NCBI GenBank assembly: GCA_012295275.1
Contig: CM022670.1
Location: forward strand, 2,356,001-2,420,000
Direction of reading: 5' to 3'
Length of the DNA: 64,000 nt
Origin: Chrysomallon squamiferum
Taxonomy: Eukaryota; Animalia; Mollusca
Shown here: in pieces, positions 14,101 through 18,936 of the stretch
Position numbering within the stretch: the first letter of the stretch is position 1
Layout of the letters: each line of letters starts with the position of its first letter
The notes under the pieces: model-generated
Databases searched by the model: none
What the model saw: the letters and a program-made list of their open reading frames with translations, nothing else
What the model was told of the DNA's origin: nothing
Position numbers and translations under genes: made by a program

Positions 14101-17100
14101 TTCTGGAAGCACTTTTCCCATACTGCCTGGAGGAAAAAAAATATGAATAAAAAAATTTAAAAATTAAATACAAAAACATTTTATTAAATATTTTCTGATA
14201 TGTAATGAATATCAACAGAAACATTCATGTAGACAACAAATAAAATATTAGTGAAATTATAATTAAGAAAAACTCATTAACATTTATTTATATGCCAACA
14301 TTAAATATTAACTTTTTTTTTTGTTTATCATTCTGTACAGTCTTGAAAATATTTTCTGATTTAAGTTTCTGTCATTTATTTAAACAGATCTGAAACTTAC
14401 CACTTTCTGGAAATATCTGATACACTTTCATTCCCTTCTTCTGTCCTGAAATACATGTTGAACTGATACTGTATTTAAGGCAAATTAAGATATTTAAAAT
14501 CAATAATAATAATAATAATAATAATAATAATAATACAAAATAACAAATGTATAAATAAATAAATAACAAAAATTTCTAATGTTCAATAACAAAAATAACA
14601 ATAACAACAGTAATATACTACTAATAATAATAATAAACTTTTCATCCACTGTGATAAGGCAGTAGTTTTAACTGTGATTTTATTTAAACAACTTTAATGC
14701 AAACATGTTTTGTAAACTGAATCTAATCAGTGATGAATTAGCAGAGTAATTTACTGACAGAGTTTAAGCACATGTTATATTTTACCTTTCTTGCCCAAAG
14801 CACATGCCAGTTCACTGCCCAGGAAACCTCCACCAACAATAGCAATGGATCTGGCCTTTTCTGTGACTTGATCCAGTCTTATAAAATCCTCAATCTGTCA
14901 TGACAAAACACTTACATTATGTCATTTTCTAAGTCACTACGGTAAAGTAAATAATATTATAATTGGAATGAAAAATCTAGATGGAGTTGAATACTTTTAT
15001 TACTTTTATTCAAGTTTTTTGTCATCAAAAGACAAGTACTAATTTTATTTTCGGATTCTAAGAATCTGTAGTTAGGTCACAAGAAAATATTTACACTGAA
15101 GTCCCCAAATCATGGTTAAATCAAAATTTGAATTAAACATACCAAAAGCAGATTTCAGCTGTTACTTGTAAACAAAGATATACATTAAAACTCACAGATC
15201 TAAATAAAATTGTCTTCTTCTTAACATCTTCTCCAGCCTTTTCCAAAACTGGTAACTGTTTTGGTTTGCCACCTGTTTCAAAAATAGTATTATTTCTTTC
15301 ATTTTTATTCACAGCTCATTAAAAATCACACTATGCATTTTTTTGTTCATGGAAGGCATATATAAAATATATCTTGCTTATAATAAAAAAAATTCTATCA
15401 TTAATCTACGAGAAAAATCACATCAAGCATGTAATAACTTACATGAGGTAACATTAAAATAAATAATCTTATTTAAGAAATTAAGGACTATCATTATAAA
15501 TACTTATTAAAAATTTCATACCTGTTGCTATAAGACATTTGTCATATGTAATTTCAGATCCATTATCCAGCCAAACTTTCTTCTCTGATGGATCAAGTTT
15601 GATCACCTATCAGATAAATTGAAAGCAACATTAATTTTCATTTAAATTTTCAATTAAACAGTCTAAATTTTCATTATAAAATTTATCAACAAAATAATTT
15701 TAAATTTTTTTCTAAAAGTCCCACACATACAGACAAATAAGAGAGAATGAAAACAGTTTCAAGTAAGTAATTGCATTGTTTCATTTGAAATATTGTTTTT
15801 ACAATATAAAATAAAAAATGGAGAATTTTTTAATTCTCTTTAGTTTTAGTTTTTCCCTCATTTTATTGATGTATATGTGTGTGTGTGTGTGATGTAACTA
15901 CAGATTTAACACTAATATGTGTCATATTCAAGTTATCCAGACACAGAAGGTGAAAGAATTGACAATATTACCTTTTTACCAGTGAGTATGGCAACACCAC
16001 CCTTCTCCTGGAATGGTAACTTCTTAGGTTCCACAAAGAAACTTGGTGGTTCAAAATACACACTATAAATAAAAATTAAAAATGTCAATTGCTAGATTAT
16101 TAAATTTGTTAATAATAAATAAATGATTCATCATTATTTTGGAGAAATATCTTAATTGTGATATCTAGTATGTTTATATTATAATCATTTTTCTATGGCT
16201 GCTATGAATCTAAGGAGTTGGAATTTCTTTCATTCTTTGGTCTTCCAAAGGTATATTCCATATCTTTTATCAGATAAAGCCTATCATATTTACCTTCTTT
16301 CCTTGCCATTCCACTGTTTAAAGCGAAGATTTTGTACAGCATTTCTGTCGTCACTAAACCATAATTCTTTAGAAAGTGGGGGTCGCATGTATGGAGTGTG
16401 ATTTTCTTCACCAACAACCAAAACCTTTCAGACAAACAACAAGATAACCAAATACCTTTTAAAAATTACCTCATTTGACAGGAAAAACATTCATTTTAAA
16501 ACAGAACAAAATTTTTAACATAACAAACATTTGAAATGTTCTGCATGGCAATATTTTGAAGATTTAGATCATCAACTTAACATTTTTGAATGATTAAAAG
16601 TAATCAGAATTTTGAAAAGTTTTGAGTTACATTTATTAAACTACCAGTATATATTTTTTTAAGTATGGATCTTGACTTTGTTTTTGAATGCCAAAAGCAA
16701 TGAAATGCAAATGAAAAGGATAGACTTTAAAAAAAAGTAAACAATTGTTTTGTTTCTTTTTCAGATAGTTCATGTCTATATGAACTTGAGTCGGTATTTA
16801 ATTTACTGTAAACATGATTGATATATTTTTTAAACACATTAAATAATGTTCATGTTCATTTTAAGATTTACCTGTGCTCTTGGATCCTGAGCTTTTATTG
16901 CTCGGAAAGCCCCAAATGAGGCTGTGCCTGCTCCTATGAGAAGATACTGTGCATGACTCGGAACCTCAGGGATTTTACTCCAGTCTGTGGCTGGAGGTCC
17001 ATCTGATTCAGAAACTTAAATTAAAAAAATATTTTAAAAATAAATAAATAAAATGCAAATCAGTTATTCTTAGAGTTACAACCTATGGTGTAGTTTTAAA

Positions 17101-18936
17101 TACAGTTTTTTTTTTTTTTAAAAAGAAGAAAAAGAAAGAAACCAACAACCACTTAAAAAATTAATTATAAATAATGAAAAGTTAAATATGTACCATTTAC
17201 ATAATGATTGATGCCTTATTATTATAAAGCAAAAAAATGTCCATTTGCTAGCATATTTAATACAAAATATTTTTTGTTTACATGTAACTGATTTAAAAAA
17301 AATATATATATTGTCGGATATTTATAGGAACATCATTCAATAGATAGAAGGAAAAACACAGAAGTGTCTATGACAAAATATTTTAATTCTAATATTTTTA
17401 CCTTCTTCCTCTTGCAATGGTAAAACATTTGGTTGTTTTTTCTTCAGATTAGGTCTGGAATGCAAATACATTGCATTCGTTTTTAAAACCTGTAAGTGTG
17501 TAGAAAAAGCAAATTATTTTCCTGTATTGAAAAATGAATAAAAAAATTATTAAAAACAACTGACATATAATATACACTAAAAATGTATATACATTAATAA
17601 ATAATTTATAATACATAATCAATAAAAAATAAATAATAATAAATTGAAATAAAATACTACTACTACTAATAATAATAATCATAATATAAAAATAAATAAA
17701 TAATAATTTTTTTAAAATGCTTCTATGAACACAAAATTCACATAAAATATTTCAGAGACTAACAAAGTATATAGTGAATCCAAAAAATGCTGTGGCTGCT
17801 GCTAAGTAAACATTGTATTTTTTGTTTCTGTCATTGTAAGCCTCCTGCCAGGAACCGTCAGGTACTGGGTAGTAATCCATGGTGGCTTGATGTTCCTGTG
17901 CAATTTCTCTGTCTGACTTCCAGTGAGTTGGGACATCATGGCTCATACACCGTGAAGCTGGACTACTTGGTAGAACTATTAACAAGAACAAAAAAATACT
18001 AAAGGGTATTTATATAAAAAAAAACATAAAAAAAAAAACATACCTGATTTATGATATAAAATTCTTTAAAAAATGACTCTAAGTTAAACTTCAATGAAAT
18101 AAAAAAATAAGAGCAGAAGTTAAATATAATTTAACCTAGCTTAATTAGCAAATAAAGTAGAATTATAAAATTTTAATTTTTTTTTCCAAAAGCTTTATTA
18201 ATCTATTGTGATCATCTTGATGTTATTTTGTTATTTATCTAACACTCTTTGTAATGGAACAGTTACGAGGTTTGGCCAGGATAATCTTTTTGTGTAATAT
18301 ACTTATACTTATAAAGTTATAGATTAGGGAATGTACGTTTATTATTTGTTTATATAAAATATACTAGTCTGCATTATATATGAACTGAAAGGAATACATT
18401 TTTTGCATTAAATACTTTAATTATATTTCTTATTTTTATCTGTGTTGTGTGTTTTAGTGTAAGTAGCAGGTTGCATCATTCATCAGATACAGAGTAGCAT
18501 GAATGATGAAGAAGTGTAAGTCTTGTTCAGTTGTTGCCAAAGACCGAATGATGTTTTGCTAATTGTTCTTGCGTCAGTCTAAATAATTTATAACGTGGGT
18601 TAGTTATTCAATTTTTTTTTAGATATTTCCAAATAATAATTTAAAAAATAAATAAAATAGCTGATAGTGTTGAAATAGTCTTCTAATTTAATAAGTATTA
18701 CATGTCAAACAACAGGTACACATGTGTCAAGGGAAATAACTCAACGGAAACTGACCTTCAACTAAAAATTGCAACATGTGTTTCTTACATAAATATTTAC
18801 ATGACATGCAATTTGACTTGGAGGAAATCACTCAGGAAATGTACTACTTACAATTTTTTTGAATAAGTTTACGTCCGACTAATGTACTGCCATAACGTGC
18901 ACAAAAAAACCGGCTTGATACCACGACCCGGTACAT
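11110..18936 (-). CDS. AIFM1: Mitochondrial apoptosis-inducing factor 1 with an N-terminal COX7B-like module, 17 exons, ~629 aa if one missing base in exon 13 is restored
   Basis: Exons 18852-18936, 17764-17975, 17402-17489, 16872-17014, 16294-16424, 15972-16062, 15522-15606, 15196-15272, 14786-14894, 14401-14445, 14064-14126, 13669-13757, 13299-13438, 12604-12746, 12068-12221, 11529-11681, 11110-11190. AIF hallmarks: [11 protein letters not shown] (FAD), [38 protein letters not shown] (NADH), [74 protein letters not shown]. Exon 1 ([28 protein letters not shown]) looks like a presequence and is the least certain exon. Confidence 0.93.
17402..17975 (-). other. COX7B-like (prag01) module encoded by AIFM1 exons 2-3
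   Basis: Translation [92 protein letters not shown] aligns without gaps to the 7134-8975 product (55/79 identical by manual count). The phase-0 intron sits at the same position. Confidence 0.92.

Follow-up and report, generated by a model that had tools for sequence, protein, structure and literature searches.

A spliced AIFM1 gene with an N-terminal CG7630/COX7B-like module in Chrysomallon squamiferum, a probable tether to complex IV

Results

AIFM1 and a stand-alone paralogue of its N-terminal module

The window, a 64,000-nucleotide stretch of Chrysomallon squamiferum contig CM022670.1, carries AIFM1 and a stand-alone CG7630/COX7B-like gene arranged tail to tail, with stop codons 2.1 kb apart (Table 1). 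The stand-alone gene had been mentioned in a preliminary description of this DNA and was located on the plus strand (7134-8975). Exons 1-4 of AIFM1 have GT-AG ends throughout and form a single open frame into the FAD domain. The first three exons code for a presequence followed by a complete CG7630/COX7B-like (PF16020) module; exon 2 alone matches PF16020 (Deltameth_res) with an E-value of 2.1e-12, the curated cut-off being 27 bits. Presequence, conserved matrix insertion, single helix and short C-terminal tail are all present in the module. Its topology is predicted, and the layout is based on hydropathy, on an alignment to 10 free and further fused homologues, and on a structure model of the Haliotis module, which is one long helix. 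The predicted transmembrane helix spans residues about 82-100, from 17817, the most hydrophobic 19-mer starting at residue 83. A processing site R-x-M/S is predicted near 17943 by comparison with human M53/A54. Matrix insertion, one helix and short tail are common to both window copies and Drosophila CG7630 (COX7BL)/prag01, also of PF16020. The fly protein is free and separate from AIF, whereas Chrysomallon has one fused copy and one free.

Table 1. Positions of AIFM1 and of the stand-alone paralogue in the window.
Feature	Position	Strand	Content	Evidence
AIFM1 exon 1	18852..18936	-	start codon and basic presequence, residues 1-28	open frame, GT donor; predicted
AIFM1 exon 2	17764..17975	-	presequence end, predicted R-x-M/S site, matrix segment, most of TM helix	PF16020, 47 bits
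AIFM1 exon 3	17402..17489	-	IMS tail (17483-17442) and linker start	tail identical to stand-alone paralogue
AIFM1 intron	17015..17401	-	387 nt, phase 1 to phase 1, joins module to catalytic part	GT-AG; spliced in RNA
AIFM1 exon 4	16872..17014	-	remaining linker and FAD-binding domain start	open frame; RNA contig coverage
AIFM1 exons 5-17	11110..16424	-	FAD/NADH domains and AIF_C	AIF_C 73 bits, Pyr_redox matches
Stand-alone CG7630/COX7B-like paralogue	7134-7182, 8267-8469, 8907-8975	+	106 aa	PF16020, 47.6 bits; predicted gene

The linker between the module and the FAD domain is 31 residues long, and the tail lies 40 residues from the GxG motif. The AIFM1 core is 84% identical to Gigantopelta aegis AIF over 300 aa. 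An apparent one-base break interrupts the frame near 13309; both pieces are otherwise open and AIF-like. Read-through of exon 3 into the following intron would reach a stop after 22 intron codons and so give a short isoform.

The module is joined to AIF in RNA

RNA contigs of runs X1, X2 and X3 that match exon 4 run past 17014 into the end of exon 3, where 30 letters are identical to window positions 17405-17434. All 3 RNA runs with exon 4 contigs show the 17402/17014 junction spliced (three samples, one study); a fourth run, X5, gave no RNA contig on exon 4. On the exon 3 side the contigs extend 451, 404 and 401 nt (X1, X2, X3), and exons 1-3 need 382 nt, which leaves room for these exons and a short UTR. 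A mis-joined gene model is ruled out by the RNA junction and is also countered by AIF relatives, since PF16020 is carried by 39 of 120 among the matches listed, some of them on transcript-sized contigs.

The fusion put forward in the preliminary description is thus borne out by the open frame, the exon ends and the RNA junction. The intron was correctly placed, and the profile scan found PF16020 together with AIF_C, in an exon downstream of the module, and Pyr_redox matches (Pfam). Gene structure and RNA contigs likewise support the proposal that the fused module is the sole N-terminal targeting and anchor region of this AIFM1.

Comparison of the module with vertebrate COX7B

Exon 2 had no match to PF05392 (vertebrate COX7B) at E<=1, and PDB sequence searches with exon 2, a module profile and an echinoderm anchor profile found no COX7B chain. 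Fold searches with the one-helix module model were uninformative and returned generic helices only (best Z 4.4). Exon 2 gave no match in a word-index search of longer proteins; a search that started from a conserved AIF exon found relatives. The homology of CG7630 and COX7B was published with HHpred E-values of 0.46 and 3, short of the usual cut-offs (Brischigliaro et al. 2022, EMBO Rep, PMC9346487). The likeness of the module to vertebrate COX7B rests on this fly work, no direct match being detectable. Of the COX7B-like identity first proposed, membership in the CG7630/PF16020 family stands, above cut-off, and a direct link to vertebrate COX7B was below detection in these searches.

These results would agree with a module that binds something other than complex IV, PF16020 not being equivalent to COX7B outside flies. 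An Atlas search would agree as well, in which PF16020 clusters scored 0.89 for exon 2, with low recognition, close to the 0.84-0.88 of unrelated small mitochondrial membrane subunits. However, fly CG7630 co-purifies only with complex IV, and of the protostomes that possess COX6A more than 91% have the family (PMC9346487), which makes such a partner very improbable.

The fused module is under constraint

The three exons of the stand-alone paralogue have the same intron phases as those of the fused module. Between the two copies 55 of 79 residues are identical (pS 0.86, pN 0.24): 31/45 in the matrix segment, 10/20 in the helix, the least conserved part, and 14/14 in the tail, where 9 of the 14 identical residues use different codons. 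The introns have no similarity left. Among five gastropods, fused modules are on average 48.5% identical and free modules 53.3% (10 pairs each). Synonymous sites are saturated, yet most residues and the whole tail are kept, so the fused module is constrained in the manner of a subunit. As the source of the likeness, recent gene conversion is ruled out by the diverged codons, the saturated sites and the unlike introns.

The module could also be a presequence and membrane anchor only, its subunit likeness being left over from duplication or gene conversion. In mayflies AIF functions on a reduced anchor without a matrix segment, and conversion can homogenise adjacent copies such as these, which group by lineage. 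The retained tail and matrix segment beside saturated synonymous sites and dissimilar introns make this explanation quite unlikely, and recent conversion would have left the codons alike too. The loss in mayflies implies that an anchor alone can do without the matrix segment, and it was counted in favour of a tether to complex IV.

An intact, equally constrained free paralogue is also found in Haliotis, Patella, Littorina, Nucella, Priapulus and Plectus. The first description of AIF as built into complex IV was overstated, as the free paralogue next door can fill the same site; with such a gene nearby, a tether is probably sub-stoichiometric. AIF as a stoichiometric subunit of every complex IV in Chrysomallon would fit a complete and constrained module. 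Given the free copies in all these animals and a mammalian occupancy of about 10% (PMC8488679), it is hardly to be expected.

Spread of the fusion

The spread of this architecture had been left open in the preliminary description. The fusion was found in 13 of the 19 named protostome species among those listed. Linkers across the fusions are of low complexity and range from 34 to 303 residues. Within a lineage, fused and free copies group together, and monophyly of the free copies is rejected (p-AU 7.6e-11).

CG7630-AIF fusions have been reported in a barnacle (A0A6A4VL42), Octopus (A0A7E6EJ31) and Daphnia (A0A0P5E3W8), in the same order, module N-terminal and AIF C-terminal, with the same topology argument and the same tether hypothesis (PMC9346487). 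The Octopus protein corresponds to P0141, which falls into the same cluster as P0003, a homologue of the window protein. In Octopus the tail-to-GxG spacing is 213-246 residues, in contrast to 40 in Chrysomallon. The fusion and the tether idea have thus been in print since 2022, and the architecture is neither unnoticed nor rare. Chrysomallon is a further gastropod example, with a short linker and RNA support. The accessible text of that paper does not give the breadth of the fusion, the adjacent free paralogue or the lineage pairing. The present analysis adds the breadth in protostomes, the adjacent free paralogue, the constraint on the module and the lineage pairing.

Discussion

Comparison with vertebrate AIFM1 and mammalian complex IV

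The catalytic core of vertebrate AIFM1 is about 59-63% identical to the window AIF. Its presequence is in exon 1, the processing site and helix in exons 2-3 and the catalytic part from exon 4 (PMC11842818), the layout of the window gene. Vertebrate AIFM1 lacks the PF16020 module; its anchors match AIF-MLS in 4 of 5 cases, and 0 of 10 score on a profile of stand-alone copies only. The vertebrate anchor, initially called unrelated, need not be so: it gives no score on the module, yet its exons are arranged alike and other unfused AIF anchors score weakly. Among 12 AIF residues to which allostery and CHCHD4/MIA40 binding have been assigned (PMC11832770), 10 are identical in the window gene; Y560 and N602 are replaced by F.

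In the mammalian COX-AIFM1(2) assembly AIF lies on the IMS face of monomeric complex IV near COX6C, at part occupancy (Hevler et al. 2021, PMC8488679). An AIFM1 dimer is bound to about 10% of monomeric bovine COX, and COX6B1/COX6C account for 82% of the COX cross-links. The bovine model places the AIFM1 helix against MT-CO2, NDUFA4 and COX6B1, away from the place of COX7B. That association is non-covalent, AIFM1 having its own helix and COX7B being a separate chain, whereas the Chrysomallon fusion is covalent. The C-terminal part of COX7B contacts COX4 and COX6C (PMC7918533), and fly CG7630 co-precipitates COX4 (PMC9346487). In wild-type human cells COX7B co-elutes with AIFM1-MIA40 fractions, and in cells with an AIFM1 knockout it does not (PMC7617965).

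A probable tether to part of complex IV

We consider it likely that, in a fraction of complex IV, the module of the spliced AIFM1 takes the COX7B site and holds AIF on the IMS face, the free paralogue filling the site in the remaining complexes. After import the protein would be cleaved behind R-x-M near residue 39. The matrix segment would lie inside, the helix would cross the inner membrane, and the tail would pack against COX4/COX6C as COX7B does. The linker would let the FAD/NADH domains sit over neighbouring subunits, and NADH-driven dimerisation and MIA40 binding may proceed as in mammals. The fusion would then be the covalent counterpart of what bovine heart shows as a partial, non-covalent association. 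A tether agrees with the junction in RNA, the PF16020 match, the constraint on the module, the lineage pairing, the published contacts of CG7630, COX7B and AIFM1 and the conserved AIF residues. Counted against the tether were the missing vertebrate COX7B match, the high E-values of the published CG7630-COX7B homology, the different place of the bovine AIFM1 helix and the weak conservation of the module's helix; the apparent frame break and the single RNA study were counted likewise.

Alternatively, the module may be cut from AIF after import, or may bind partners on the AIF side during assembly only, so that the fusion delivers a subunit or marks an intermediate. The same constraint would be explained, and the linker is in general long, variable and low in complexity. 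Human COX7B occurs with AIFM1 in fractions of 100-200 kDa, small for mature complex IV (PMC7617965), and cell death in mammals involves cleavage of AIF behind the anchor (PMC8488679). However, routine cleavage behind the only AIF anchor would leave AIF soluble, and the free paralogue could already supply the subunit. We regard delivery or an assembly role as unlikely, and a tether remains the preferred reading.

Possible origin of COX7B from the AIF anchor

Unfused AIF from sea urchins, a sea cucumber, cnidarians and mayflies has an anchor with COX7B or PF16020 as best Pfam match in 8 of 12 cases, all below cut-off; among vertebrate anchors, in 0 of 5. HHalign probabilities against the stand-alone profile were all low (mayfly 28.5, echinoderm 9.2, cnidarian 4.8, hemichordate 1.7, vertebrate 1.2), and an Atlas search with the urchin anchor gave no match. 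The best Pfam matches raise the idea, tentative and on balance doubtful, that COX7B began as the AIF anchor. The fused state would be ancestral at least for protostomes, with cnidarian, echinoderm and mayfly AIFs keeping a worn helix and tail. Free COX7B/CG7630 genes would have arisen by duplication of AIF exons 1-3, perhaps repeatedly. The neighbouring fused and free pair in the window would point to such a duplication. Should this origin hold, it would explain the source of a bilaterian-specific respiratory subunit. On the same reading, an NADH-induced AIF dimer in fusion-bearing animals would bring two complex IV subunits with it and could link two complex IV monomers.

Both mitochondrial biology and AIFM1 disease pose the question, still open, of how AIF contacts complex IV. 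The Chrysomallon gene confirms and widens the idea of 2022 and does not open it. A natural covalent fusion points to a docking site, and the fused and free modules of one animal provide a clean test system.

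Gene structure and transcript of the fused AIFM1

The module, the PF16020 (Deltameth_res; CG7630/prag01, COX7B-like) part encoded by the first exons of AIFM1, had been described as lying N-terminal to AIF on one chain, and the exon structure bears this out. Exon 3 is followed by an intron of 387 nt in phase 1, and the frame is single across it. Eight pieces were scanned against Pfam: exon 2 matched PF16020 with 47 bits (cut-off 27 bits), a late exon matched AIF_C with 73 bits, and five pieces had no match. The proposed COX7B/CG7630 likeness held for the PF16020 family, but a match of the module to vertebrate COX7B was undetectable by Pfam, PDB sequence or fold search. 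The AIF core shares 84% identity with its Gigantopelta aegis counterpart and 73% with the Haliotis one, which marks the animal as a gastropod. The reading frame shifts by one base within the exon at 13299-13438 (minus strand), at a short run of A near 13309; both flanking pieces are otherwise open and AIF-like, and the break is probably an assembly error. The tandem transporter genes of the window are presumably SLC4A11-like.

Features of the window
Feature	Position	Strand	Remarks
AIFM1 exons 1-4	18936-18852, 17975-17764, 17489-17402, 17014-16872	-	GT-AG ends, single frame into AIF FAD domain
AIFM1 remaining 13 exons	gene end at 11110	-	complete AIFM1
Stand-alone paralogue, 106 aa	7134-7182, 8267-8469, 8907-8975	+	three exons; PF16020 47.6 bits
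Two tandem bicarbonate-transporter-family genes, matching exons	about 23700-34000, 40600-49700	-	HCO3_cotransp 54.6 bits, one exon
299-codon open frame at window end	63103-63999	-	

Part of the stretch is present in five sequencing runs; exon 4 was compared with the contigs of four of them, of which X1, X2 and X3 are RNA from three samples of one study. In each of these three, a single contig extends past 17014 into 30 letters of window 17405-17434, the 3′ end of exon 3, showing that exon 3 is spliced to exon 4 at the predicted 17402/17014 junction. At the opposite end, the X1 and X2 contigs pass the exon 4 donor with letters matching the start of exon 5. The 5′ side comprises 451, 404 and 401 nt (X1, X2, X3) as against 382 nt left of exons 1-3, and the excess fits a short UTR. 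The preliminary description had named AIF starting from a different 5′ exon as grounds for rejecting the fusion. This is not the case in these contigs, because those with exon 4 run into exon 3 and no alternative 5′ partner was seen among the run contigs, which drop rare forms; the fourth run, X5, had no contig matching exon 4.

Fused and free copies of the module

The stand-alone paralogue (free copy) lies tail to tail with AIFM1 and has identical intron phases. Over 79 codons, fused and free modules have 55 residues in common, 32 of them via different codons, with pS 0.86 (saturated) and pN 0.24. Residues are kept at 31/45 positions of the matrix segment, 10/20 of the helix and 14/14 of the tail, the last despite 9 codon differences, and nothing lasting of intron similarity between the two genes was seen. 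The duplication is old, and purifying selection holds both copies, on parts unnecessary for a plain anchor; a module serving as anchor only is quite improbable.

In module trees built on 81 columns, the fused copy of the window groups with the free one (100/98), and the same pairing by lineage holds for Patella (97/94), Priapulus (100/98) and Plectus (100/100). Those of Littorina and Nucella cluster by type, not by lineage, and the Haliotis copies have no resolved placement. Monophyly was rejected for the free copies (p-AU 7.6e-11, 23 rows) and for the gastropod free copies (p-AU 0.016, 15 rows), in tests chosen after the first tree was seen and on a short alignment. The lineage pairing could come from repeated duplication, from old conversion or from co-adaptation to the complex IV of each lineage.

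Distribution of the fusion

PF16020 was present in 39 of the best 120 of 1586 AIF relatives, and the module profile scored at least 60 bits in 38 of 87 N-termini examined, the next score being 15.5. The survey found the architecture to be widespread: among the matches listed, 13 of 19 named protostome species carry it (two Octopus, Liolophura, Haliotis, Patella, Littorina, Nucella, Batillaria, Owenia, Priapulus, Plectus and two Daphnia). The six without it are three mayflies, Lamellibrachia, and Gigantopelta and Solemya, whose models are N-truncated. Among these matches, it is absent from every named AIF entry of an echinoderm, hemichordate, cnidarian or vertebrate. Annotations probably under-count the fusion.

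Of the public AIF models (P0002, P0092, P0081), the Gigantopelta and Solemya ones begin either within the module or beyond it, and the Lamellibrachia one is without a helix. Mayfly AIFs (P0020, P0028, P0108, P0136) have a module-like helix and tail, with the matrix segment gone; together with the free PF16020 gene of Ephemera, they possibly represent a step in insect loss of the fusion. In cephalopods and in several probably crustacean sequences (P0003, P0057, P0086 and others), Ala/Glu/Pro-rich repeats lengthen the linker that joins the module to the FAD domain to 200-300 residues.

Free copies were found in Nucella, Haliotis, Littorina, Patella, Priapulus, Plectus and Ephemera (18 matches among 1142 candidates). 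The fused and free genes of Patella have neighbouring locus tags, and those of Haliotis, Littorina and Nucella are each listed on equal-sized contigs. At E<=0.001, a full HMMER search brought up 663 representatives; of the best 150, four had the AIF core and 36 broke off at the end of the helix (profile position 61), compatible with an intron common to these genes at that place.

Unfused AIF anchors

Anchors of 12 unfused, non-vertebrate AIFs, excised by eye, were scanned against all 24,736 Pfam families. COX7B or PF16020 ranked top in eight, all scores being under the cut-offs: COX7B for two sea urchin anchors (E 0.018, 0.083), PF16020 for Stichopus, Nematostella, Oculina and three mayfly anchors (E 0.0047-0.097). 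The remaining four gave no match or a different family, neither family was top for any of five vertebrate anchors, and unrelated membrane families also surfaced at E 0.05-0.2. Each anchor was also scored on a profile built from free copies alone, next to 200 zone-preserving shuffles of it; the real score was reached by at most five shuffles in 3/3 mayflies, 2/4 echinoderms and 2/3 cnidarians, and in 0/2 hemichordates and 0/10 vertebrates. A fused-plus-free profile gave 12.7-18.9 bits for holothurian, coral and mayfly anchors, with reversed controls at 7.3 or less; HHalign probabilities of unfused anchors were all under 30%. The human AIFM1 helix, too, is split between exons 2 and 3, according to the accessible part of PMC11842818, and in shark the exon 2a/2b isoforms come together immediately 5′ of the corresponding place. 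Since the available text of PMC9346487 reports free COX7B missing from cnidarians, the COX7B subunit might tentatively be derived from AIF anchor exons. A literature search, with thin coverage of subscription journals, returned no paper stating this origin.

A proposed tether to complex IV

In the accessible text of Brischigliaro et al. 2022 (PMC9346487), CG7630 of the fly is shown to belong to complex IV and to be homologous to COX7B, AIF-fused homologues are noted in barnacle, Octopus (P0141, A0A7E6EJ31) and Daphnia, and the fusion is proposed to serve as COX7B and separate AIF do in deuterostomes. No other paper treating the fusion was found, as judged from the listings of a search covering subscription journals thinly. 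The fusion is real, spliced and widespread, and both the architecture and the tether of AIF to complex IV are already in print, the tether being still hypothetical.

The imported precursor would most likely be cut after R-x-M near residue 39, as inferred from human M53/A54. With its N-terminus facing the matrix, the module would then insert and, in a fraction of the complexes, occupy the COX7B site next to COX4/COX6C, both of which the C-terminal part of COX7B contacts (PMC7918533), the 31-residue linker placing AIF above subunits to which mammalian AIFM1 cross-links. The free paralogue argues against full AIF:complex IV stoichiometry. In the part of Hevler et al. 2021 (PMC8488679) available, AIFM1 dimers are found on ~10% of monomeric bovine COX; in that model, however, the AIF helix is located elsewhere than the COX7B site proposed here, which, like the undetectable match of the module to vertebrate COX7B, speaks against the tether. 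COX7B is present in AIFM1-dependent 100-200 kDa fractions (PMC7617965, in the text available); cleavage of the module from AIF, or a role in assembly, is an unlikely alternative to the tether. Of the 12 AIF residues that the accessible portion of PMC11832770 ties to allostery and to CHCHD4 binding, ten are kept in the window gene, which would make a MIA40 dock on this AIF plausible.
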